Below are positions 14,987 through 27,724 of a stretch of 38,078 bases of DNA, in pieces (position 1 is the first letter of the stretch; every line of letters starts with the position of its first letter). This DNA comes from a virus. The stretch lies in IMG/VR virus record IMGVR_UViG_3300020036_000999, positions 1-38,078 of that record; one strand, written 5' to 3'. The notes under the pieces are model-generated. The model was not told the DNA's origin. It searched no databases and saw nothing but the letters and a program-made list of their open reading frames with translations. The position numbers and the translations under genes were made by a program.

Positions 14987-15469
14987 ATGAAAATTTACGT
15001 CGGAACATATAACAAGTATAACAATGGCAGCATTGCAGGCGCGTGGCTAGATTTAAGCGACTACAATGACGCCGAACAATTTATCGACGCGTGTAAGGAA
15101 TTACACAATGATGAAATTGACCCTGAATTGATGTTTCAAGATTTTGATGACATACACAAAAACTATTGCCGCGAGTGTATCGACATTGCTGAAGTCTATT
15201 ATTATGTCAACGCTTGCAATGGTGATGGTAAAGACGTCATTGATGCAGGGCTTGATTGTGAAATACCACTTGATTCAATCATGGACGCGTATATCGGCGG
15301 TTATGAAAGTGATGTTGATTTTGCTTACGATATGGCCGAACAATGTGGCTACTTAACCTTAGAGACTAACGCGTGGCCGTATAACTGCATTGACTGGCAT
15401 AAAGCGGCGCGCGAGTTAATGTTTGATAACGTAGAATCAAAAGGTCATTACTTTAACTGTCATTTTTAA
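14987..15469 (+). CDS. ardA: ArdA-family antirestriction protein (DNA mimic, anti type I restriction-modification)
   Basis: The N-terminus MKIYVGTYNKYNNGSIAGAWLDLS matches the ArdA signature (YvanLg.YNeG.L.GaW.dl). Highly acidic. The C-terminal CIDWHKAARELM resembles ArdA YIDY.AYGRDL. Confidence 0.85.
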   Translation: MKIYVGTYNKYNNGSIAGAWLDLSDYNDAEQFIDACKELHNDEIDPELMFQDFDDIHKNYCRECIDIAEVYYYVNACNGDGKDVIDAGLDCEIPLDSIMDAYIGGYESDVDFAYDMAEQCGYLTLETNAWPYNCIDWHKAARELMFDNVESKGHYFNCHF

Positions 15470-15814: not shown

Positions 15815-16032
15815 TGACGACTATATACCTAGAATTTATTGACGCCCCTATGTGGTATCACACGCGCGGGTTAATGCAAACCGCAACAGGTTACGGTCGC
15901 AAACTAAACACCGGCAAAAAAGCTATTGTAGGCGACAAAGAATATCGCGTTTATGCTAGTTGCTTCTCAAATGTAGCGTGTCTTTATATCATCATTAAAG
16001 GCGTCAAAATTTACGTTGATAACTGGAAATAA
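15814..16032 (+). CDS. Hypothetical early protein
   Basis: 72 aa, TAATG-coupled to the upstream ORF. Contains the motif TGYGRKL.T......eYRVY...FSN. Confidence 0.5.
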   Translation: MTTIYLEFIDAPMWYHTRGLMQTATGYGRKLNTGKKAIVGDKEYRVYASCFSNVACLYIIIKGVKIYVDNWK

Positions 16033-16036
16033 TAAA

Positions 16037-16234
16037 ATGAAAACATATTTAATAAATGACGACGAATTATTCAATTATAGGGTTGAAGCTACCAGTTACC
16101 ACCAAGCCATTGCACTATTTAAAGACTTATATCGCGTTCAAGGCCGGTTACGGTTGACGGCGCGTTATGCAAACGTTAAAGAATACAAACTTGATAAATC
16201 AAACTATAAATTTAGCATAAAGGAACTAACATGA
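16037..16234 (+). CDS. Hypothetical early protein
   Basis: Start refined to ATG 16037 (MKTYLINDDE...); the track start at 16016 is a TTG. 65 aa. Confidence 0.45.
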   Translation: MKTYLINDDELFNYRVEATSYHQAIALFKDLYRVQGRLRLTARYANVKEYKLDKSNYKFSIKELT

Positions 16235-16293
16235 TAATAATATTTTTGATGCTGATTAAATTCGCAATACTGGCGATAATGCTAGAAAACTAA
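16231..16293 (+). CDS. Possible 20-aa hydrophobic micro-peptide (MIIIFLMLIKFAILAIMLEN)
   Basis: ATGA overlap with the upstream stop. It ends 8 nt before the terminator. Not in the ORF track (under 60 aa). Very short, so uncertain. Confidence 0.25.
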   Translation: MIIIFLMLIKFAILAIMLEN

Positions 16294-16300
16294 ACAAAGA

Positions 16301-16326
16301 ACCCGCGATAACAAGCGGGTTTTTTA
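16301..16326 (+). terminator. Rho-independent terminator of the ardA operon (first of two)
   Basis: ACCCGC-gataacaa-GCGGGT followed by TTTTTAT. Confidence 0.8.
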
Positions 16327-16343
16327 TTGCATCAAACAATTGC

Positions 16344-16365
16344 AAGGGCTTAACGCCCTTTTTTA
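16344..16365 (+). terminator. Second tandem rho-independent terminator
   Basis: AAGGGC-ttaac-GCCCTT followed by TTTTAT. Confidence 0.7.
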
Positions 16366-16540
16366 TTGCCTACCATTTAACGGCCTACAATGGCCGATAG
16401 ACTGCAAAACAATTTAAAGCAATACTACCCTACGCCTTATCATTCAATCAACCAATGACAAGCCAATAAAAGCTATTCTATAACCCTATTCAATAGCAGG
16501 TGTAGCACGGGTTAACAGGCAATTGAACGCGTAAAATCTT

Positions 16541-16655
16541 ATTTGATGGTCATTTGATAGGCTCAGAATTTCAAATCTGGTAAGGGCTAGGATTTCAAAT
16601 CTAATGAACGGCCAAATTCTGCCACGAAACGATTTGCAAAATTCTGCCACGAAAC
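16541..16655. repeat. Three pairs of short direct repeats (iteron-like)
   Basis: ATTTGAT at 16541 and 16552 (11-bp phase). ATTTCAAATCT at 16568 and 16592. AAATTCTGCCACGAAAC at 16614 and 16639 (25-bp phase). Confidence 0.8.
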
Positions 16656-16661
16656 CGATTG

Positions 16662-16730
<69 letters not shown>

Positions 16731-16768
16731 CCATGAACTAACAATTAGAGAGAATTGTTAGAGGTATG

Positions 16769-19039
16769 TTATTTGATTGCTACAACTTTTGCAACAGGTT
16801 TCTGCTCTGCCAAATCCCGAAGGCTAGATTTGCTCATGTGCGCAAACTCAGGTGCGCAGAAGACGTGCTTCTTAGTCTTAACAGAGCGCGACGCACACAT
16901 ACCGACATCAACCCAACCTGCTTCTTCAAGCGCGTGGAACAGCGCGGCAGGCGGGAATTGTTTACTGCCAAACGACATAGCAGCTCGCTCACAAATTGCC
17001 TGAAAAGGAGAGGCAATCACGCCCGACGCAAACTCACCCATACGCAAAGAAATCATATCCAGCAGTGATGACTCAACAGCAGACATACCATTCTGCACCA
17101 GTGACATCTTAAAGTCCGTCATAGGTGCAGGCGCAGCAGGGTTGAACGCGCTAACGTCACGGTTAAACAACCAGTTAGCGATAAGGTCATATCCACCGTT
17201 GTTAAACCAGCTCCAAATACGCGACGCAACATCAGGCGGAAGACGCGACGCGTTGCTCCATGTACCAAACCACCGACGGTCACCCGATTCAAGCGACAGC
17301 GGCACACGGTCATTAGAGAACGCAAGCACGGCAAGACGGTTTACAAGATTGTAAGGGGCAAGACCTTTACGGTTAACTGATAGCATCTCAGGTGGCGCGG
17401 CGATGACTGGCTTGAGTTTGTTCGCAAGCATCCGACGTGCGGCGCTGTCTGCTTCTTTAAGCTCGTTAATGACTACGATTTCTGCTTCAAGATGATACCC
17501 CCACGCGGACTGAATCGTATCAGTAGACATCAGAGAGTAATTGCGCAGGTTAGGCCCGCATACGGCGTATATGAACGGCGCGTACATGGTGTCTTTACCG
17601 ATACCTTGACCGCCAGCGTGAAGGATAGCGTGGTTAATCTTAACGCGTGGGTTCTGCACCTTGAACGCCATGTAATCCCAGATATGCGCAAGCTCACGCT
17701 CATCTGGAACAAGAGATTTACAGTGGTCGAGCCATAGAGATATGTCGCCGCCCAAATTTCCGCCACGGGACGAATTGGGGCGGGCGTCGCGCCACCGGTT
17801 GCCGTAAAGCTCACCGTCACGCGTAGCAATAACAGAATCACCGGCAGCAAAGGTAATACCTGCAAGCACTTTAGCGCCCATCACCTGACGGTTTTCGTCA
17901 AAGCTCATTGCTGCTTCAACTTTACGGTCAGAGTGAATACTCTTGCACGACACATGACGGTAGACGGCGTTAAACGTCTGGCGTGAGAACTCACGACGGT
18001 TCTGCAAATCGAAATAAGAATCGTCAGACATAACGTACGCAAAGCGCTGATACCACTCTGCCTTCTCAAGCCGTGCGATTTCCTTCTGTTCGACTTCTGC
18101 AATAATAGCGGCGGCGTCAGTGCTGAACATATCCGACGGCTCAAGTTTGCCAATCGCATTGTGCATCACCTCCGCCAATATTTCCTCCCGAAGACCGTGT
18201 GAGTGCTTAGGTCCACCCATCTCAGCCACCCACGCGAGGTAAGTACGACTGTCCCATGACGAACAATGTCCGTGAAAGCAACAGTAAGCGCGGTTGAGCG
18301 GGTGGTATCTGCCCATCAACTGCCCATCAGTATGCTCGGCGTGGTTAGGGCAGACTACGCCAACCCAGCCTTCAGCATTAGCAGACTCCATCACGTCGCC
18401 ACGAGAGGCTAACCAGTCAAGCACTTCATCGTTGCCTGTGTCAATAATAGCGATTGGACGCACGGACGCGGTGTCAGCATCAGACGGGTGAACATCCAGC
18501 GCCGAGCAAATTTGGTCGAGGGTAAACTCACGCTCAGGGTGGAATTCTACAAGGATAGACTGAAACGATGCGCGGTCAGGCTTTAAATTGACCGACGCAG
18601 GCAGGCGAAAATTCCGCACAGGGTTAATTGCGCCGCTGTCAGTGTAGCCAGCGTCAGCGATTGCTTTAATAGCTGCACTGAATTCACCCTTAGTGGGCAT
18701 ATCATCTAAAGCGAAGGTGTAGCCCCATTGAAAATTTTGCGGTGAGGTCTCCATTATCCACGTCGGCTCAATGGGCGGGCGTAAACTCTTAGTGCCAATA
18801 TCATCAAGCACAAGGAAGGCGACATACTCGCAGTTGCCCGCACTCGCAGACGGTTTGCCCTCTTTAAAGCGTGACGTGATAAACGACGCGGTATTGCCAT
18901 ACCATGCACCCTTGCCATCGTACTTTGCTGGCAAGTAAGCTGGCCACGCAAACTGACCATTGTCTTTAGCTATTTGTTTGACCAGAAGGACGCTCTCGCC
19001 CTCAGGTGCAATACGTTCCAAATACTTAATAAAATTCAT
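16769..19039 (-). CDS. Bifunctional primase-helicase (AEP prim-pol N-terminus, Cys/His zinc region, SF3/D5/VirE-like P-loop helicase)
   Basis: DxD-type motif FLVLDDIG. CPNHAEH...CCFHGHC. Walker A GGQGIGKDT and Walker B VVINEL. Start refined to MNFIKYL (ATG 19039, ATGA overlap with the polymerase stop). Confidence 0.8.
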   Translation of the reverse strand: MNFIKYLERIAPEGESVLLVKQIAKDNGQFAWPAYLPAKYDGKGAWYGNTASFITSRFKEGKPSASAGNCEYVAFLVLDDIGTKSLRPPIEPTWIMETSPQNFQWGYTFALDDMPTKGEFSAAIKAIADAGYTDSGAINPVRNFRLPASVNLKPDRASFQSILVEFHPEREFTLDQICSALDVHPSDADTASVRPIAIIDTGNDEVLDWLASRGDVMESANAEGWVGVVCPNHAEHTDGQLMGRYHPLNRAYCCFHGHCSSWDSRTYLAWVAEMGGPKHSHGLREEILAEVMHNAIGKLEPSDMFSTDAAAIIAEVEQKEIARLEKAEWYQRFAYVMSDDSYFDLQNRREFSRQTFNAVYRHVSCKSIHSDRKVEAAMSFDENRQVMGAKVLAGITFAAGDSVIATRDGELYGNRWRDARPNSSRGGNLGGDISLWLDHCKSLVPDERELAHIWDYMAFKVQNPRVKINHAILHAGGQGIGKDTMYAPFIYAVCGPNLRNYSLMSTDTIQSAWGYHLEAEIVVINELKEADSAARRMLANKLKPVIAAPPEMLSVNRKGLAPYNLVNRLAVLAFSNDRVPLSLESGDRRWFGTWSNASRLPPDVASRIWSWFNNGGYDLIANWLFNRDVSAFNPAAPAPMTDFKMSLVQNGMSAVESSLLDMISLRMGEFASGVIASPFQAICERAAMSFGSKQFPPAALFHALEEAGWVDVGMCASRSVKTKKHVFCAPEFAHMSKSSLRDLAEQKPVAKVVAIK

Positions 19040-20949
19040 TTTCCATATCTCTCTAATGTTGATACACCAACGGCTAGCGGTAAGCCTTCTGCCCATGCAG
19101 GAGCGCTACACATCACCGTTTCCAAGTCTTGCGCGGCGCTTTCCGCGTCTTCTTTTTTCACTTCTAAGACGATTTCATCGTGAACATGAAGCACGACAGT
19201 ATGCCCGATTCGACGCAACGCGTCACGAAGTAAATCGTTGGCAATCGCTTGTGTAATATTCTCACAAGCAAGTCCAGCCCATAGCCTAGCTCGCGGCCAT
19301 TCAACTGCATCAGCAGCGGGTTTCCACGCCGCCTTAGCGTAAGATACGCTACCGTCTTCAATGTATGCCGACGGGTAGCACAGCACCCGACCCGAAGGCA
19401 GGGCGTACCACAAATTCACGCCATCAAACAGATACGTCACGCGCCCAGCGGTAAACTCACGACCTTTGTGACGCATGGCGCACATATACGCCCGCTCAAG
19501 CTCACCCCAGTAGCGCACTGCCCAAGTGTTACTGCGACGCCACGCGTCAACGGTACGTTTAGCCTCCGCTTCAGGCAGTGAGATGCCATAGGCTTTGCCC
19601 ATTGCACCAAACGCGCCAGCACCACCCATATAACCACACGACAGAATCGCCACTTTACCTATCTGACGTTGGTCAGGCGTGATGGCGTCCATTGGACGGT
19701 TAAAGATACCTGCCGCCGCGCGAATGTAGATGTCCTCACCCGTGCGAAACACATCAAGCACATCTTCACTGCCATGCTGCAAACTAGCCCAAGGCGTCAC
19801 ACGCGCTTCAATACCTGCCCAATCTGCTACCACGAACACATTACCATCGGCAGGTATTAGCGCAGGGCGAAGCATACCTTTTAGAACGTCCGTAACGCGC
19901 TTGCCATGCACTGGAACGATGTTGCGCCCGATGACCATATCATCGCGCACTCGCTGTGGCTCTTTAGCGCATTTACGCGTGAAGTTATGCACCTGCGCAC
20001 CATATGACGACGCTCGACCAGTTGCACTGCCACCGTTGAACACAAACGCGCCACGCACACGGTGGTCTTCAAAGTCCGCAAGGTAAAGCAGACGATTAAA
20101 CTTCGCCACCGACGACGCCCACAGGTCATCAGCGCACTGAATCACCTCACCAACGTGCGAGGGGATTTCCTCTGGGTCGTCAATCAACATCAAATTAGCG
20201 CGAACGCTTTTATCAATGGAATACTTCTCACCGTTCCACATCAACGCACGCGCCGCAGGGCCGACACGCTCAAGCACCCACTCACGCATCTTAGGCGAGC
20301 GAACGGACTTAATTGCACCGTCGGTCAGCTCCACGACACGCGATTGGATTTCTTCAAGCTCGACACTGGCGTAACGCATTGCGGCGCGACACAGGTCAAC
20401 GTCCACGAGAACACCCGCGTCGTTAATGCGCTCATTGACGTGATAATCCGCAAGCTCGTCATCAGTCAATTGACGTAGCGCAGTAGACACTGCTCGCATA
20501 GTCCGAACGTCTTGACGGCAATACTCGATAAGCTCAGGTAGCAGTTTGGTGTTAAATGGTGGAGTGCAGCACTGCTTGACTAGCATCTTGCCTCGGTGGT
20601 CTTTGCGCATTTCGCTAGAGATAGCACGACCAACGTCTTCTAAACTGCCGGGAAGACAATTAGCGCGGGCTTGCACAGCCGTGCAGTAAAACTGCTCTAA
20701 CTTAAAGTCTATCTGTAGAACGTACCAAAAGATTAACCGCTCAAAGGCAGCGTTATGCGCGCGTATCTGACCCGTGTAGTTGCGCACGTCATCGGGGAAC
20801 GGCAAGTTAGGCGTCCATGTCTGCACGTCACCATCATCAAAGGCGTAGCACATACACAGCACGTCAGTAGATAGGTCTTGCGCGTAATTGTAGACGCCGT
20901 GCTTGGGCAGGTCACATTCGCTCTTTGTTTCAAAGTCAATATATAGCAT
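19036..20949 (-). CDS. Family A DNA polymerase with an N-terminal 3'-5' exonuclease
   Basis: ExoI IDFETKS, ExoII HNAAFE, ExoIII YCRQDV. Pol motif A VVADWAGIEAR, motif B RQIGKVAILSCGYMGG, motif C LHVHDEIV. Start refined to MLYIDFET (ATG 20949, TGATG overlap). Confidence 0.9.
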   Translation of the reverse strand: MLYIDFETKSECDLPKHGVYNYAQDLSTDVLCMCYAFDDGDVQTWTPNLPFPDDVRNYTGQIRAHNAAFERLIFWYVLQIDFKLEQFYCTAVQARANCLPGSLEDVGRAISSEMRKDHRGKMLVKQCCTPPFNTKLLPELIEYCRQDVRTMRAVSTALRQLTDDELADYHVNERINDAGVLVDVDLCRAAMRYASVELEEIQSRVVELTDGAIKSVRSPKMREWVLERVGPAARALMWNGEKYSIDKSVRANLMLIDDPEEIPSHVGEVIQCADDLWASSVAKFNRLLYLADFEDHRVRGAFVFNGGSATGRASSYGAQVHNFTRKCAKEPQRVRDDMVIGRNIVPVHGKRVTDVLKGMLRPALIPADGNVFVVADWAGIEARVTPWASLQHGSEDVLDVFRTGEDIYIRAAAGIFNRPMDAITPDQRQIGKVAILSCGYMGGAGAFGAMGKAYGISLPEAEAKRTVDAWRRSNTWAVRYWGELERAYMCAMRHKGREFTAGRVTYLFDGVNLWYALPSGRVLCYPSAYIEDGSVSYAKAAWKPAADAVEWPRARLWAGLACENITQAIANDLLRDALRRIGHTVVLHVHDEIVLEVKKEDAESAAQDLETVMCSAPAWAEGLPLAVGVSTLERYGK

Positions 20950-21818
20950 CAAAACACCTCGCACGATTCTGAACACGCACCGGCAGAGTCTAAATCATCA
21001 TTAAAATTAGCCATAGTAACTCTGTACCCATCCACAAAAGGTTCAAAAGGCAGTTTTGCTTCAGCTAGAATATCTTTAGTAGATTTAGCACCTCGAAAAA
21101 ATACACGCTGATACTCAGGGTCTAAATTAAAACCGGCGTTACCATACATAGCCTCCATTCTTGCAGGAAAATCAAAGATAGCAGGGTTTTCTTTAGCTAA
21201 AGTTAATAACTTACGTTTAGACTTTTTCCAACACCATTTACAATTACCTTCATGTTCGTGCAAATTAAGCCTAAAAGGTTGCAGTTCCCAAAAGTTTCTA
21301 ACTTCTTGCTTAGTAATTTTTAAATCAATTAACGGGTAGATGATTCTGTTTTCTGAAAACTTGGCGCTAACCCTATCAAGCTCATCTAACCGAATACCTA
21401 TGGCAGTATCATACGACCCGCTTTCCCACCCTAAATTGCGAACGTATTTAGTTATAGGCGCTAACTTTAGTTCTCTTGTGCAAATAGGCTGCTTTTGATT
21501 AGGTATGCCGTACTTTTTAATAATTTCTTCAAATGGCTCACCTAACCTAGAAGCAGACGCAAAATCTACCACGTTAAATCCTGAACCTTTGCGTTCGTTA
21601 TGGAATACTTTAGTTTCAAGCCATACGACATTAAAGTTAAAATGCTTGTCACATAAGTCAACGAATTTCAATGTAGCTTCGCTTTCTTGTCCAGTATTGG
21701 CAAACAAAACAACGGTTTCTTTATAGGGGTTATTTTTTAGCAATAGCGAGGTCATAAAACCTGAAGTTTCTCCGCCGCTAAAACTTATTAAAAGTCTGTC
21801 TTTTTTATTTGTATTCAT
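20949..21818 (-). CDS. PP-loop ATP pyrophosphatase, PAPS-reductase-family protein with C-terminal Cys motifs
   Basis: PP-loop SFSGGETS at residues 12-19. CKWCWKKS and CSESC occur near the C-terminus. About 37% GC versus about 60% in a sampled line of the adjacent polymerase gene. Confidence 0.7.
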   Translation of the reverse strand: MNTNKKDRLLISFSGGETSGFMTSLLLKNNPYKETVVLFANTGQESEATLKFVDLCDKHFNFNVVWLETKVFHNERKGSGFNVVDFASASRLGEPFEEIIKKYGIPNQKQPICTRELKLAPITKYVRNLGWESGSYDTAIGIRLDELDRVSAKFSENRIIYPLIDLKITKQEVRNFWELQPFRLNLHEHEGNCKWCWKKSKRKLLTLAKENPAIFDFPARMEAMYGNAGFNLDPEYQRVFFRGAKSTKDILAEAKLPFEPFVDGYRVTMANFNDDLDSAGACSESCEVF

Positions 21819-21843
21819 AAAAAAAGGCGGCCTTTCAGCCGCC
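21819..21843 (-). terminator. Rho-independent terminator-like hairpin abutting the start codon of the PP-loop gene
   Basis: Minus strand: GGCGGC-tgaaag-GCCGCC-TTTTTTT, followed directly by ATG (21818). There is no SD between the hairpin and the ATG. Confidence 0.6.
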
Positions 21844-21857
21844 CCTCTCCTTATCGG

Positions 21858-22496
21858 TTATGCGCGTCTGCGGCGGGTGGCAGGCGCTTCATCCTCGACA
21901 GCTTCTTCTTTTGGCGCAGGCTCACCATCTAGGCTAATCCACTCCACAATGTCAAACATCGGTGTGTAGATACGCCCGTAGGCTTTATGCTGATAATGTT
22001 CTTTGCCCAAAGAAACAACAGCCACTGGCTTACTTTGGTCTGTTTCTACTTGATTGGCAATGTTGACCGCTAAGGTCTGCACTGCGCGTTTACCACCCAC
22101 GCTAGTGACGGTGTAGCGTACTTCTTCGCCTTTATCTTCACCATCTATACATTTGAGCGAAAAGCCCACTTGCGTTTCCCAGCCACGTTTAGCGGCGGCA
22201 GGCGCAGGGTCTAGTTGTGGCAATGGCTCAGTAACGCTAACCATCTTTTCACCTAGCACTTCACCCTCGCCCCATGCAATAAAACCATGCGTAAAGCTGA
22301 ACGGATTAACTGCCCAAATGCTGTCATTGTCTACTTCGGTTTCTGACGCGCCATATACCCAATGGCCTGTTCTATCCATTTTAAGGATAGTCACGCCGCC
22401 AGCCGTGCTGGTGTCGGTTTGAATGTTGCGAAGTGCGCTGCTGATTGAATTTACTGCTGGAAGGTTGGCGTTGCCAAATACGGTTAATGATGTCAT
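21858..22496 (-). CDS. Hypothetical protein, candidate ssDNA-binding/annealing partner of the exonuclease
   Basis: 212 aa, immediately downstream of the Cas4-like exonuclease. Acidic C-terminal stretch PKEEAVEDEAP followed by RRRRA. No family recognised. Confidence 0.3.
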   Translation of the reverse strand: MTSLTVFGNANLPAVNSISSALRNIQTDTSTAGGVTILKMDRTGHWVYGASETEVDNDSIWAVNPFSFTHGFIAWGEGEVLGEKMVSVTEPLPQLDPAPAAAKRGWETQVGFSLKCIDGEDKGEEVRYTVTSVGGKRAVQTLAVNIANQVETDQSKPVAVVSLGKEHYQHKAYGRIYTPMFDIVEWISLDGEPAPKEEAVEDEAPATRRRRA

Positions 22497-22508
22497 TTTA
22501 ATTTACCT

Positions 22509-23627
22509 TTAAAGTTTATTGAGGGCATTTGTTAATTGTTGCCCGATTAGTAAGACAGTAGGGCGGGGGTCACTTTCGTGCGCCATCGTACTGCCAGAAG
22601 ATACCACTGCAACGACGTCCGTTGGCATAGGCAGTTTCAGAGCCTTTAATTTCTTCTCTGCCTGTGCCGGTGAAACTAATTTAGAATCGTAGATGTCATC
22701 GTTTGTTAAACCAAGCGCCAGAAGCGACTCAACTGCTTCTGACTCATTAGTCCATTTTCTTGTCCCTCGTTTAGCTACTAATTTGTAGTTAGGGACAGGT
22801 TTACCCGCTTCGAGCATTTGAAACGCAAGCGCTCTCAAATCGGTAATCCATTGTTCCAGAATCTCAGCCTGTTGTAAATAGTTTGCAATAGAATCTGCAT
22901 CAATATTATCTAGCGACGCCTGCAACGCTCTATCTACCTCACCTGTCATTAAAGGACAAGTTGGTTTAGCTGCGCACCACTTGCAGTGCTTACCGCTAGC
23001 TAATGGCGCGTCAGGTGCGTCAGACAAATCGATAGCCTTCTTAAGTGTATTTTCAAACTCTCTAATGCGTTTAAAGGTGGTTTTCCAGCGCTTGACCGAC
23101 GGAGGCTGAACAATCACAAGCTCAATAGACGCCGCGCCATCAAACACCCATTCTAGCCCTTTTGTGCGCATAGCGGCGGCGGCATAGAACATGAGCTGTT
23201 CGTTCTCCTCCACTTCTACGCTAACGCCACTGCCAAACTTCCAATCTAATATGACGGCGCGGTCACCAAGGCGTCCAATAAGGTCAACGCTACCAAACAC
23301 CTCAGGCAAGAAGTCACCATAACTGACATTGGCTTCAACGGTAAACTCCATCGACTTGGTAGGGTCAATTTCATCAAGCGCCGCTAGCGCCGGCTCAATC
23401 TTTTCCTTTGCCAGCTCAGTTGTCATATCAATGCCAGCATAAGATAGACTGTAGATGTTGAAGTTATCCTCAGTGAGTAATTTCTCCATTGCAAGGTGGC
23501 AAAGTGTACCTTCATCGGCAAACGATGACGACGGCTTAGGTGGCATTTGTTGCACCAACTTAACACTGGCTGGGCAGGCGATAACACGTTTGGCGGTGCT
23601 ACCGCCGGCGATACTTGAATGGCTCAT
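22509..23627 (-). CDS. PD-(D/E)XK Cas4-like exonuclease (DUF2800-like)
   Basis: Start refined to MSHSSIAGGSTAKRVIACPAS (GAGGAAactaaaATG). D...DWK nuclease motif (VDLIG...ILDWKFG). C-terminal CKWCAAKPTC plus an N-terminal Cys, i.e. Cas4-type 4-Cys cluster spacing. Confidence 0.75.
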   Translation of the reverse strand: MSHSSIAGGSTAKRVIACPASVKLVQQMPPKPSSSFADEGTLCHLAMEKLLTEDNFNIYSLSYAGIDMTTELAKEKIEPALAALDEIDPTKSMEFTVEANVSYGDFLPEVFGSVDLIGRLGDRAVILDWKFGSGVSVEVEENEQLMFYAAAAMRTKGLEWVFDGAASIELVIVQPPSVKRWKTTFKRIREFENTLKKAIDLSDAPDAPLASGKHCKWCAAKPTCPLMTGEVDRALQASLDNIDADSIANYLQQAEILEQWITDLRALAFQMLEAGKPVPNYKLVAKRGTRKWTNESEAVESLLALGLTNDDIYDSKLVSPAQAEKKLKALKLPMPTDVVAVVSSGSTMAHESDPRPTVLLIGQQLTNALNKL

Positions 23628-23668
23628 TTTAGTTTCCTCTAGTTTAGTGAGATTGCAGTATATCAAAA

Positions 23669-23702
23669 AAAGTTTGCAAAGAAAAGTTTGCAATGATAAA
23701 CT
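23669..23702 (+). promoter_or_regulatory. Candidate promoter for the plus-strand middle operon, with the direct repeat AAAGTTTGCAA x2
   Basis: Repeats at 23669..23679 and 23683..23693. TTGCAA (23674..23679), 17 nt, TAAACT (23697..23702). The predicted transcription start falls at about 23709, the A of the VRR-NUC ATG. Confidence 0.4.
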
Positions 23703-23708
23703 TTAGTC

Positions 23709-23984
23709 ATGTTAGAAAAAGACATCGAAAAACATCTAATAAAAGTCGTCAAAGAGCTTGGCGGCAAATCATATAAGTTCACCTCCCCTGCTTGTCGGGG
23801 AGTGGCAGATAGAATCGTGTGTCTACCGAATGGCAGTACATGGTTTATTGAGCTTAAAACCGCAGGTGGCAGTCTGTCAGCACTGCAAAAAGTCTTTGCA
23901 TCAGATATGAGCAAACTTAATCAAAAGTACGCTTGCCTCTGGAGCAAAGAAGATATTAACAACTGGAGAGAAAACAATGATTGA
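23709..23984 (+). CDS. VRR-NUC domain nuclease
   Basis: 91 aa. GVADRIVCLPNGSTWFIELKTAGGSLSALQ matches the VRR-NUC PD-(D/E)XK core (G.pD......g...fiE.K.....ls..Q). Confidence 0.75.
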   Translation: MLEKDIEKHLIKVVKELGGKSYKFTSPACRGVADRIVCLPNGSTWFIELKTAGGSLSALQKVFASDMSKLNQKYACLWSKEDINNWRENND

Positions 23985-24123
23985 ATTTGTACAGTACCTT
24001 GATGAAAGCAATTTAGCGTACCTTATTATGCTGTTTTGTTTCTTGCTAATGGCGCGTTTGCATCTTAATGCGTTAACTGAAATTGCGCGTCTTCGCAAAA
24101 TTATGAAGCAGGTGATGAGATGA
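23977..24123 (+). CDS. 48-aa single-TM protein (not in the ORF track)
   Basis: Manual translation: MIEFVQYLDESNLAYLIMLFCFLLMARLHLNALTEIARLRKIMKQVMR. Overlaps the VRR-NUC stop by 8 nt, and its stop overlaps the next ATG. Confidence 0.4.
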   Translation: MIEFVQYLDESNLAYLIMLFCFLLMARLHLNALTEIARLRKIMKQVMR

Positions 24124-25352: not shown

Positions 25353-25932
25353 CAAAGATTTAGATATAGTAAGAGAAGCGGTAAAGTACAACAGTCAAAC
25401 AGGACACTTTTACAAAGGAGGCGCATCTACGCCTGCTGCACTTAACTGGAAAAACAAAAACGCAACAATCAACGTTAAAAAAAGTGGGCTGCACACTAAC
25501 TTTTTAGCGTGGAAGGTTGCGGTGTTTTTAGCCTACGGTTGGTATCCAGCGCATACTGACGCGGTAGAGTATTTAGATGACAATCCAACTAATCTGCGCA
25601 TCAGCAATATTAGAGTCATTAAAGCGTCTGAAGACGAAATGACCATGATTGACTTCTGTGATGAAAACGACTTGCGCTACCCTAGCGTGTCGGCGCTTAT
25701 GCGCGGCGAACCGTTTACCCGCCGAGTAGAGAACGGGTATTCAAGAGCGTATTTTAGTAAAAGCATACTAGAAGCTAATTGCGCCAAATTGCTTGCTAAG
25801 AAACTTCGCGATGAAGAAATAAGAGAAAAGCCCAGAACGCGACCAATGGGCAAACGTCGAAATGAACACTTTATGCAATTCTTGAGAACGCACACTATCG
25901 TGCCTAAAGGTTGGGAGATGACGTTATGTTAA
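25345..25932 (+). CDS. HNH_3-like homing-endonuclease-related protein with a degenerate catalytic motif
   Basis: AVEYLDDNPTNLRISNIRV aligns to the HNH_3 core vdHiDgn..nNri.NLr, with Tyr in place of the first His. Confidence 0.45.
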   Translation: MNDKDLDIVREAVKYNSQTGHFYKGGASTPAALNWKNKNATINVKKSGLHTNFLAWKVAVFLAYGWYPAHTDAVEYLDDNPTNLRISNIRVIKASEDEMTMIDFCDENDLRYPSVSALMRGEPFTRRVENGYSRAYFSKSILEANCAKLLAKKLRDEEIREKPRTRPMGKRRNEHFMQFLRTHTIVPKGWEMTLC

Positions 25933-26165
25933 AAGGCGACTCAGTACACGCAGGCGACCCCGTAGACGCACCAGCACATTATCAAGGTGACAAGATGCAG
26001 TGCATCGACGCAATGGAAGCAATGCTAAGTGTTGATGAATTCAGAGGATATTTGCGCGGTAATATTTTTAAGTACCAATGGCGTTTTAGAGATAAAAACG
26101 GTCTTGAAGACTTGCGCAAAGCACGGTGGTATTTAGACAGACTAATCAAATTGGAGAATTTCTAA
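25926..26165 (+). CDS. DUF3310-family protein
   Basis: PAHYQGDKMQCIDAMEA...LRGNIFKYQWRFRDKNGLEDLRKARWYLDRLI matches the DUF3310 pattern (p.HY....e.id.i.......gn.iKY..R...K.g.eDL.KA..Yl). Start refined to ATG 25926 (GGGAG SD). Confidence 0.7.
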   Translation: MLKGDSVHAGDPVDAPAHYQGDKMQCIDAMEAMLSVDEFRGYLRGNIFKYQWRFRDKNGLEDLRKARWYLDRLIKLENF

Positions 26166-26326: not shown

Positions 26327-26706
26327 AACCAAAGCTCAAAACGATGAATGGGGTGTGGATATGCTACACCCCTTGCTGCTCCATTCCGATGATGGCAGAC
26401 CACCCCAAAACAGCGTACTTAAGATGGAAATTTATCAATGCTAAGACCCAACCAGATAGAAGCTGTTGCCTTTTTGAGCCAAATAGACAAAGGGATGATT
26501 CTTGCCCCAGTAGGGGCAGGCAAGACAGCAATAACATTGACAGCGATGAAGGAGGCGCTCGACACGGGCAGAGTACGTCGGTTCTTAGTGATAGCGCCAA
26601 AGCGTGTCTGCACGGATGTGTGGACGATAGAGCCGGCGAAGTGGGCGCCAAGTCTGACAGTATCTATCGCCGTTGGCTCGCTAAATCAGCGTCTAGCAGC
26701 ATTTGA
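26323..26706 (+). CDS. Small ORF coupled upstream (MKPKLKTMNGVWICYTPCCSIP...AYLRWKFI...). Its 3' extent is uncertain because it runs about 270 nt out of frame into the helicase gene.
   Basis: ATGA overlap at 26323. The first 38 or so codons precede the helicase ATG. The remainder overlaps the helicase in the -1 register. Confidence 0.3.
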   Translation: MKPKLKTMNGVWICYTPCCSIPMMADHPKTAYLRWKFINAKTQPDRSCCLFEPNRQRDDSCPSRGRQDSNNIDSDEGGARHGQSTSVLSDSAKACLHGCVDDRAGEVGAKSDSIYRRWLAKSASSSI

Positions 26707-27724
26707 CGCGCCATCTCAGGTGGTTGTGACTAATTACGATACCCTTCAAACGCTACCGCCATTGCCTGACTTTGATGGCGTGGTGTTTGACGAATTGACT
26801 GTTTTGAAGAACCCGTCAGGCAAGCGTTTTAAAGCGCTGTTTGCGCGTATCAAAGACTTCAAAATTAAATGGGGGCTTACCGGTTCGTTTACCAGTAACG
26901 GACTTGAGGACGTGTTTGGGCAGTGCAAGATAGTGGACGCATCGCTTCTTGGTAAATCCAAAACCGCCTTTCTTCAAACGTATTTTGTGCTACTCAATAA
27001 AGACTTTGGTGAATGGGTTGCCAAGTCCACATCACTGCGTGACGTCATGGCGGAAATTAAACCCGCAACGTATCTTATCGACACGCAAGAGTACATGGAC
27101 ACTTTGCCCCCGCTTAACGTTGTGCCAGTCAAATGCGCGATGGATATGAAGCAATACGGTGAGATGAAGAAAGACTTTGTGGTGTACTACGAAGACAAAG
27201 AAATCATTGCGGTTAACGCCGCCGTAGTGGTCAACAAACTGCAACAAATGGCTAGCGGGTTTTCCTACATTGAAGGACACCCTACCACATGGTTCTCGCG
27301 CCACAAGTTTGACCGTCTTGATGAAATACTAGCGGAAAACCAACACGCCAATACGATTATCGTGTACAACTTTCAGGCAGAGCTTGAAGAACTTAAACGC
27401 CGATACCCAAACGCGCGGACAATCGACCAGCAAGGCGTCATTTCGTCGTGGAACGCAGGGCGAGTGGAATTGCTACTGGTACACCCTAAATCAGCAGGGC
27501 ATGGGCTGAACCTCCAATTTGGCGGCAGTAAAATGGTCTTCCTGTCGCTTCCTTGGTCACTTGATAGATATGAGCAGACCATTGGACGGTTGCACCGTAG
27601 TGGACAAAAGAGTGCCGTATATTGCTATGTACTGCTAACAGACAAAACCGTAGACGAGCGCATATTCGCAAGTCTGCATGACAAACGCGCAATCTCAGAT
27701 ATTGCCTTAGAGGAATTAAAATGA
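26438..27724 (+). CDS. SNF2/DEAD-like superfamily 2 helicase
   Basis: LRPNQIEAV, Walker A APVGAGKT, DEAD-like VVFDELT, and C-terminal motifs HPKSAGHGLNLQ and GRLHRSGQ. Confidence 0.85.
   Translation: MLRPNQIEAVAFLSQIDKGMILAPVGAGKTAITLTAMKEALDTGRVRRFLVIAPKRVCTDVWTIEPAKWAPSLTVSIAVGSLNQRLAAFDAPSQVVVTNYDTLQTLPPLPDFDGVVFDELTVLKNPSGKRFKALFARIKDFKIKWGLTGSFTSNGLEDVFGQCKIVDASLLGKSKTAFLQTYFVLLNKDFGEWVAKSTSLRDVMAEIKPATYLIDTQEYMDTLPPLNVVPVKCAMDMKQYGEMKKDFVVYYEDKEIIAVNAAVVVNKLQQMASGFSYIEGHPTTWFSRHKFDRLDEILAENQHANTIIVYNFQAELEELKRRYPNARTIDQQGVISSWNAGRVELLLVHPKSAGHGLNLQFGGSKMVFLSLPWSLDRYEQTIGRLHRSGQKSAVYCYVLLTDKTVDERIFASLHDKRAISDIALEELK

Follow-up and report, generated by a model that had tools for sequence, protein, structure and literature searches.

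A gene of the lambda NinC family (phrog_424) has recently been inserted into the replication operon of the virus recorded in IMG/VR as IMGVR_UViG_3300020036_000999, immediately in front of the gene for its DNA polymerase (polA). The sequence analysed, referred to below as the window, comprises positions 1 to 38,078 of that record (38,078 nt), and the inserted gene is referred to as the cargo gene. The cargo gene is intact, encodes a protein with a PP-loop ATP-pyrophosphatase fold, and is best named an open reading frame (ORF)-precise, translationally coupled cassette in a hotspot. We consider it moderately probable that its product would act as an ATP- and Fe-S-dependent sulfurtransferase, fed with sulfur by the host cysteine desulfurase IscS, which modifies nucleic acid for counter-defence. 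The anatomy and evolution of the feature are well explained, and its biochemical function is what we infer from sequence and gene context.

The sole convincing gene in the segment 20949-21857 is the minus-strand cargo ORF, with its ATG at 21818 (Table 1). The original prediction, made from the DNA letters and a list of ORFs, had described a PP-loop gene with the motifs SFSGGETS, CKWCWKKS and CSESC between an exonuclease/partner pair and the polymerase. The motifs were confirmed on the minus strand, and profile scans bore out the position: in minus-strand order, the genes are the DUF2800 exonuclease, a 212-aa gene, the cargo gene, polA and the DUF5906 primase-like gene. The cargo protein matched the phrog_424 profile over its full length (aa 4-288, E 7.5e-48) and is therefore not the product of a chance ORF. 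Lambda NinC, which scored E 1.2e-89 against the same profile, was 31% identical to the cargo protein over aa 10-289 (tblastn, E 9e-25). The cargo gene thus adds a new member to lambda NinC/PHROG 424, a family that is known but uncharacterised, and we found no function for lambda NinC in the literature searched.

The family is large and diverse. A 90%-clustered collection contained 3108 matches, and among 1.84 billion representatives there were 3044 clusters at 50% identity with E<=1e-3, 911 of them with E<=1e-30. Searches of the phage collection with tblastn yielded 522 records, every one below 60% identity and labelled 'NinC', 'ninC-like' or 'PAPS reductase' (PAPS, 3'-phosphoadenosine 5'-phosphosulfate); the members compared with the cargo protein were 29-46% identical to it, and the homologs included those of Pseudomonas phage Touem01 (43%), Chi-like phages (38%), lambda (31%), Stx phages and hundreds of Vibrio phages. 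Relatives in the bacterial-genome scan reached only 42-55% identity and were found in unrelated phyla, giving no clue to the host. A megablast of positions 19000-24000 against cultured phages gave zero matches, so the phage is known from metagenomes only.

We examined whether the label 'PAPS reductase' is appropriate for the cargo protein. PF01507 (PAPS_reduct), one of the profiles that the original prediction had proposed to search with, covered just the N-terminal 67 residues (E 1.3e-5). The CysH equivalog NF002537 scored 11.9 bits (E 0.12) against a cut-off of 154, and the hhalign probability of a match to E. coli CysH was 1.4%. The catalytic motifs differ as well, E. coli CysH having SSSFGIQ and a terminal ...KRECGLHEG where the cargo protein has SFSGGETS and CSESCEVF. 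No cys genes were found near the cargo gene, whose setting is the replication operon. The earlier view that a role in sulfur assimilation is unlikely was upheld.

Residue conservation was assessed in an alignment of 12 sequences, which included lambda NinC, Chi gp42, the phage protein PptA (see below) and alternative cargos, together with 47 homologs. The residues S14, G16, S19, E45, C113, K118, G141, E146, R149, C193 and C196 are invariant from lambda NinC to PptA, while C282 and C286 are near-invariant in the family. These residues include positions in the PP-loop SFSGGETSG (aa 12-20, S12-S19), the CTRELK motif (C113, K118), the GIRLDELDR motif (G141, E146, R149), the GNCKWC segment (C193, C196; CKWCWKKS) and the C-terminal CSESC (C282, C286; CSESCEVF). 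The AlphaFold (AF2) model of the protein has a pLDDT of 90.8, with low values at residues 1-4 and in the C-terminal tail (~50). Foldseek neighbours in the PDB were generic PP-loop enzymes, among them the [4Fe-4S] enzyme LarE, GMP synthetase, TtuA, MnmA/TrmU, APS reductase and CysH, and a search of BFVD gave a single better viral model (TMq 0.73) with no name. A direct search of PDB sequences with the cargo protein returned nothing, and one with the family profile returned a marginal match to PptA (E 0.19). A search of long homologs for informative fusions detected no Pfam domain in their extensions.

To reconstruct the insertion, 80 IMG/VR loci with polA relatives (61-98% protein identity) were fetched and five genes were mapped on each. 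In about 26 loci of the close clade (polA 93-99% protein identity, and 93-98% in the empty-site loci themselves) the site is empty, with 39-45 nt separating the 212-aa gene from polA; this spacer is 39 nt in the empty site versus 908 nt in the filled site. The empty-site spacer is CCGATAAGGAGAGGGGCGGCTGAAAGGCCGCCTTTTTTT, followed directly by the polA start ATG CTA TAT ATT GAC. The filled site was observed in the window and in loci L001-L003. With slashes marking the junctions, the empty site reads ...TTTTTTTATG/CTATATATTGAC and the filled site ...TTTTTTTATG/AATACA...TTTTGATG/CTATATATTGAC. There were no direct or inverted repeats and no att-like sites flanking the insertion, and the absence of flanking repeats ruled out a transposon- or integron-like event; nor did we find any similarity outside the ORF to the flanks of the nearest homologs. 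The cargo gene took over the original polA start codon and its upstream region, and polA restarts at TGATG behind a GAGG supplied by the cargo.

The exact cargo protein is present on four metagenomic contigs. In the comparison of the window with the metagenomic contig L001, 870 of 870 nt of the cargo gene were identical, while the upstream flank was 91.8% and the polA flank 93.6% identical. The identical tract is 1021 nt long and includes about 75 nt on each side of the cargo gene. Outside the tract there were 279 differences in 3.6 kb, corresponding to a backbone divergence of 7.7%, at which the probability of zero mismatches in the tract is about 4e-36. An identical tract on backbones of this divergence indicates a very recent transfer of the cassette by homologous recombination through the ~75-nt flanks.

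Base composition gives a similar picture. The GC content of the cargo gene is 0.370 (0.31 at third codon positions), the lowest among 33 window genes and in agreement with the earlier figure of about 37%; the remaining genes have a mean of 0.462 (sd 0.038). In a sliding-window analysis of the whole window, only 0.7% of the 870-nt windows had an equally low GC content. The figure of about 60% given earlier for the polymerase was too high, since polA has a GC content of 0.532 and its 300-nt windows reach 0.57. A low GC content as an intrinsic trait of the family was ruled out: family members in GC-rich bacteria have values of 0.56-0.64, and we therefore interpret the low value as a signature of the donor. 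The nearest homologs beyond this phage group, with 76-79% identity at the protein and ~75% at the nucleotide level, reside in phages with GC contents of 0.34-0.36, and the cassette derives from an AT-rich phage lineage. Empty sites, the identical tract and these homologs together substantiate the recent horizontal acquisition that the original prediction had deduced from composition and boundaries.

The prediction had also drawn attention to a GC-rich hairpin and a run of seven T residues ending at the cargo ATG. Both are present, the coding strand reading TAA (stop of the 212-aa gene)-CCGAT-AAGGAGA-GG-GGCGGC-TGAAAG-GCCGCC-TTTTTTT-ATG. The hairpin consists of a 6-bp GC stem and a 6-nt loop (folding free energy, dG, -20.6 kcal/mol, z -4.4), and 0 of 200 shuffled sequences folded equally well. 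Taken as a boundary or feature of the insert, however, it was misassigned: the same hairpin, U7 run and ATG start polA in the ~26 empty-site relatives, and the hairpin is therefore an element of the backbone. A hairpin is found at the same position in all clades (L004-L082), with unrelated stem sequences. A Shine-Dalgarno (SD) sequence is indeed missing from the usual -5 to -12 interval, as had been stated, but the SD-like AAGGAGA lies immediately 5' of the hairpin, is kept in the empty-site relatives and would serve polA there.

A G+C-rich stem-loop followed by U7 has the form of an intrinsic terminator, although a simple terminator scan did not list the hairpin, and a scan for promoter-like sites between hairpin and ATG found none. 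The U7 run is also able to pair with the purine-rich SD in an extended fold. Other clades retain the hairpin without always having a U-run, so that termination is perhaps not the conserved role; their SD-like purines are placed on the 5' side of the stem in some cases and inside its 3' arm in others. Control of polA translation or transcript processing is more likely to be the conserved role than termination as such, and in the clade of the window the hairpin looks like a leaky intrinsic terminator in addition. Separately, the first codons of the cargo gene (AAAAAAGACAGACTTT on the coding strand; 21791-21806) could pair with the U-run and the hairpin's 3' arm (21820-21835), to which they show 81% complementarity; this possible alternative structure may be due to chance.

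At the downstream end, the cargo stop codon TGA (20951-20949) shares one base with the polA ATG (20949-20947) in the sequence TGATG, as had been noted. The likely SD for coupled translation of polA, GAGGTG, lies in a region that encodes the family-conserved C-terminal ...CEV (CSESCEV). A classical moron is an additional gene that lies between genes of related phages and brings a promoter and a terminator of its own. The description of the cargo gene as a moron fits its presence/absence pattern among close relatives and its deviant GC content (0.37 vs 0.46-0.53). It does not fit in other respects, since the insert extends exactly from start to stop codon, the hairpin, SD and ATG are backbone elements, the start was borrowed from polA and the stop overlaps polA; lacking its own promoter and terminator, the cargo gene is not a classical moron.

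The position in front of polA is not reserved for NinC. Seven close relatives (L009, L020, L021, L028, L032, L060, L079) have a 254-aa PP-loop gene in the slot (phrog_424 E 1.4e-37, GC 0.36-0.39) with the motifs SFSGGMGS...NNCGGFC...GGCGCA. This gene carries its own GGAG, and in all seven loci but L009 the former polA ATG persists as an 8-codon leader ORF (MFVLLELI*) that overlaps the cargo ATG; in L009, an ATT replaces the old ATG and the leader ORF is absent. In L063, the slot contains a third PP-loop gene of 233 aa with a PADLOC SspD match of E 4.2e-47. Other occupants are a ~200-aa phrog_757 DNA methyltransferase (four loci), a 461-aa C5 cytosine methylase (Dcm-type; PF00145, E 6e-40), two kinds of HNH endonuclease and two small Cys-rich ORFs, the alternatives to the 254-aa gene being distributed over L035, L037, L042, L054, L057, L063, L069/L070, L081, L077 and L080. 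Every slot cargo starts just past the hairpin, and its stop overlaps the polA start (ATGA, TGATG or 14-20 nt), so that selection evidently requires a plugged-in gene to pass ribosomes on to polA. The cargo is an exchangeable accessory and not a core gene.

In a wider group of phages with the same replication module, NinC-like genes that are 50-54% identical to the cargo were found at three different junctions. Besides the site in front of polA, these were the junction between polA and the primase gene (L096, L099, L101, L129-L131, L136) and a divergent position upstream of the exonuclease (L097, L115-L119), indicating repeated acquisition. Close homologs in unrelated phages adjoin ParB and Mom, Dam, or a C5 methylase. 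In cultured phages (Touem01, Chi, lambda and Vibrio phages), the annotated neighbours are mostly hypothetical proteins.

Among defence families, the best match to the cargo protein was SspD (PADLOC, E 8.4e-13), with aa 10-224 aligned to profile positions 3-201 of 277, a partial match to a profile that has no curated threshold. The BrxP profile matched with E 1e-5, the hhalign probability between the cargo family and the SspD-like cargo of L063 was 96.5%, and the NCBIfam models of TilS and LarE gave faint matches. As far as sequence can tell, the cargo protein may resemble SspD, DndC or BrxP in its working, yet the profiles of these families were matched in part or not at all.

Further support comes from the PDB entry 21fy, in which the phage protein PptA and the E. 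coli IscS sequence are present together. PptA is encoded by Vibrio phage vB_VhaP_VH-5 (100% match to QGH73774.1; positions 4971-5720 of L083 and 18758-19510 of MN497414.1) and belongs to the same family, with a phrog_424 match of E 1e-45, an hhalign probability of 82% to the cargo family and E 1.9e-9 to the 254-aa cargo. The entry provides experimental support for contacts of phage family members with the host cysteine desulfurase. In Vibrio phages, a protein that combines a PAPS domain with Dam is exchanged between near-identical phages and made it possible to infect a Dnd+ host (bioRxiv 10.1101/2021.05.05.442762), and PAPS reductases are a recurrent component of anti-defence operons under Aca control (PMC13551039). 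The family is common and already suspected of anti-defence roles. With the SspD match, the slot-mates, the anti-Dnd study and 21fy, the DNA-directed, counter-defence role suggested in the original prediction is the best-supported reading.

Under the proposed sulfurtransferase mechanism, the cargo protein would bind ATP at the PP-loop and hold a [4Fe-4S] cluster on C113, C193 and C196, while the C-terminal CSESC tail would receive persulfide sulfur from the host IscS. The enzyme would adenylate a nucleic-acid substrate and then insert the sulfur. The substrate would most probably be the backbone of replicating phage DNA, modified by a phosphorothioate-type chemistry like that of SspD, DndC and BrxP. 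Expressed together with the polymerase, the enzyme would be able to place the mark during replication, and progeny DNA could thereby escape modification-dependent defence of the Dnd or Ssp type. With no phosphorothioation partners found among the window ORFs scanned, the enzyme may use those of the host, act alone, or do something else.

Several observations weigh against this mechanism. The SspD match is modest and restricted to the N-terminal two thirds, and the DndC search that had been proposed was negative: TIGR03183, with a cut-off of 290 bits, reached 11.2 bits and aligned only to aa 100-148, and the PADLOC DndC models had no match. The TM-scores of the structural neighbours, tRNA and cofactor thiolases included, are low (0.34-0.43). 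Characterised phosphorothioation systems require the ATPase DndD or SspC and the DNA-recognition/nicking protein DndE or SspB (PMC12914056, PMC12707154), and none of the partners DndD/DndE or SspB/SspC was present among the window ORFs scanned (the neighbours and ten further ORFs). Lambda ninC is dispensable in the laboratory (PMC10695390), and we found no publication on PptA or 21fy in the literature searched. In a census of the neighbours of 54 non-redundant NinC loci, limited to the 25 commonest families per set, polA accounted for 9 of 142 adjacent genes versus 3 of 148 distal controls. The DNA-modification genes were four C5 methylases and one Mom among the 142, compared with one N6/N4 methylase and one Mom among the 148, and C5 methylase was absent from the controls among the families listed; this enrichment (~5 vs 2) is slight and was treated as weak support only. 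The [4Fe-4S] cluster predicted on C113, C193 and C196 is read from sequence alone.

Several other readings were considered. The protein could be a decoy that mainly binds IscS and diverts or blocks the flow of sulfur, so as to starve phosphorothioation, tRNA thiolation or Fe-S assembly without modifying nucleic acid. Dnd and Ssp phosphorothioation use IscS or DndA, and the pairing of PptA with IscS in 21fy, the lack of partner genes among the ORFs scanned and the degenerate PP-loop of PptA (SCGAPS), which hints that catalysis is dispensable in some members, would all be compatible with a decoy. We nevertheless regard it as unlikely, as IscS binding is equally expected of a genuine sulfur acceptor and it is difficult to see why a pure binder should have retained the SGGxTS loop, E45, K118, E146 and R149, as the cargo protein and most family members have. 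Improbable to the same degree is a thiolase or amidotransferase directed at tRNA, in the manner of TtuA, TtcA, MnmA and ThiI, or at a free nucleotide or cofactor, which would reprogramme translation or evade anticodon nucleases. In favour of such an activity are the Foldseek scores of TtuA, MnmA/TrmU, LarE and GMP synthetase, which are similar to that of APS reductase, the faint TilS and LarE matches, and the NinC-like gp42 of phage Chi, which adjoins a nucleoside 2-deoxyribosyltransferase. Against it, the best profiles are those of the DNA-phosphorothioation enzymes SspD and BrxP rather than tRNA thiolases, the slot is shared with DNA methyltransferases and an SspD-like gene, and tRNA genes were not found in the phage.

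The cargo could also be a neutral hitch-hiker, from which the phage gains nothing, in a socket that tolerates insertions or is subject to linked homing. HNH homing-endonuclease genes do occupy the slot in some relatives, most close relatives have no cargo, and lambda can dispense with ninC. The cargo protein, however, has no nuclease domain, thousands of diverged homologs share its catalytic motifs without change, the identical cassette on diverged backbones fits a recent selective spread, and acquisitions occurred independently at three junctions of the same module, all of which makes neutrality very improbable. A role as an auxiliary metabolic gene, that is, a CysH-type PAPS/APS reductase that boosts sulfate assimilation by the host, would agree with the PF01507 match, with the 'PAPS reductase' labels in PHROGs and GenBank and with APS reductase and CysH being among the fold matches. 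Considering the failure of the CysH equivalog and hhalign tests, the missing ECGLH, the canonical PP-loop and the absence of cys genes nearby, we find such a role highly implausible. A bolder generalisation of the sulfurtransferase reading is that the NinC family, lambda NinC included, consists of solitary IscS-fed sulfurtransferases that mark replicating phage DNA with a phosphorothioate or another thio-modification without DndD/E or SspB/C, and that the junction in front of polA is a swap socket in which DNA-modification genes (three PP-loop types and two methylase types), exchanged as ORF-precise, coupled cassettes, track the defences of the host; we offer this tentatively and consider it rather doubtful in this extended form.

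Table 1. Features at and around the cargo gene (window coordinates).
Feature	Position	Strand	Evidence or remark
Cargo gene: NinC-family (phrog_424) PP-loop ATP-pyrophosphatase-like protein, 289 aa	20949..21818	-	ORF, phrog_424, lambda NinC, PF01507
869-nt insertion relative to empty-site relatives	20950..21818	-	Placement ambiguous by the 3-nt ATG at both junctions
1021-nt tract (cargo and ~75 nt per flank), 100% identical to metagenomic contig L001	20873..21893		Nucleotide comparison
GAGGTG, likely SD for coupled polA translation	20955..20960	-	In final cargo codons, 5 nt before polA ATG
U7 run between hairpin and ATG, terminator-like	21819..21825	-	Sequence, fold
Backbone hairpin GGCGGC-TGAAAG-GCCGCC	21826..21843	-	Fold; identical in empty-site loci L004-L034
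AAGGAGA, SD-like, immediately 5' of hairpin	21846..21852	-	Kept in empty-site relatives
Primase/helicase-like protein (DUF5906), last gene of replication operon	16769..19039	-	Domain/PHROG profile scans
PolA, family A DNA polymerase, 637 aa	19036..20949	-	PF00476 E 1.9e-21, phrog_17 E 9.5e-93
212-aa gene upstream of slot	21858..22496	-	phrog_9528; no match in Pfam scan
DUF2800 / PD-(D/E)XK exonuclease	22509..23630	-	PF10926 E 1.8e-59; start as called in L001

Elsewhere in the window, a plus-strand ORF of 160 aa (14987-15469) matched PHROG 2059, 'anti-restriction protein', with E 3e-23, which gives the phage one or more additional counter-defence candidates outside the replication operon. The adjacent segment 15470-16768 is poor in ORFs, has the lowest GC content in the window (0.349 for 15921-16790) and may be a regulatory or origin region. 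Terminator-like hairpins lie back to back at 16300-16360, with the early genes of the plus strand on one side and the primase gene end on the other. In a divergent block on the plus strand, a small phrog_93 endonuclease-like protein (23709-23984), an 84-aa protein that matches 'nucleotide kinase' PHROGs (25911-26165) and a phrog_62 DNA helicase (26438-27724) are encoded. No tRNA genes or Rfam families were found in the window.

These results bear on a broader set of phage genes, since NinC-type 'PAPS reductases' are among the most commonly mislabelled phage accessory genes and are often counted as auxiliary metabolic genes of sulfur metabolism. The locus shows how an essential operon can accept an additional gene undisturbed, the newcomer taking over the start codon and passing translation on by coupling. 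It also offers a clean natural comparison, in which nearly the same backbone is empty or contains NinC, another PP-loop gene or a methylase. The SspD-like profile, the cysteine pattern and the PptA/IscS entry lead to a concrete hypothesis that is testable in lambda, namely that sulfur from IscS would be transferred to nucleic acid as a means of counter-defence.

Compared with known systems, the cargo protein has the PP-loop ATP-pyrophosphatase core in common with SspD, DndC and BrxP. The cysteines of DndC form a three-cysteine 4Fe-4S site and a dyad (PMC10853773), and the C...CxxC triad and tail pair of the cargo protein amount to a DndC-type cysteine inventory; the C...CxxC pattern is also that of [4Fe-4S] PP-loop sulfurtransferases and of APS reductase. 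The cargo protein differs from SspD and DndC in being phage-borne and solitary, with neither SspB/SspC nor DndD/DndE among the ORFs scanned, and its C-terminal third does not align to SspD. The likeness to CysH is limited to a distant alpha/beta PP-loop-type fold and the PF01507 label, whereas ECGLH is absent, the canonical ATP loop is kept, there are extra conserved cysteines and the gene context is another. PptA has the CT.xLK and NNCxxC motifs in common with the cargo protein, but is only ~21% identical, with a degenerate PP-loop and another C-terminus. The Vibrio protein of Piel et al. (p0018 of phage 44E38.1) resembles the cargo protein, by description only, as an exchanged PAPS-domain anti-defence module tied to DNA methylation, just as PP-loop genes and methyltransferases alternate in the slot in front of polA, although that protein is a 479-aa fusion and the cargo a single-domain protein of 289 aa. 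The closest counterpart is lambda NinC, a stand-alone accessory gene in an early/replication region with the same PP-loop, CTRxLK, GIRxDExxR, GNCxxC and C-terminal CSESCE motifs; the lambda gene (ORF-290) is located in the nin region, whereas the cargo gene is a translationally coupled cassette inside a polA-type operon.

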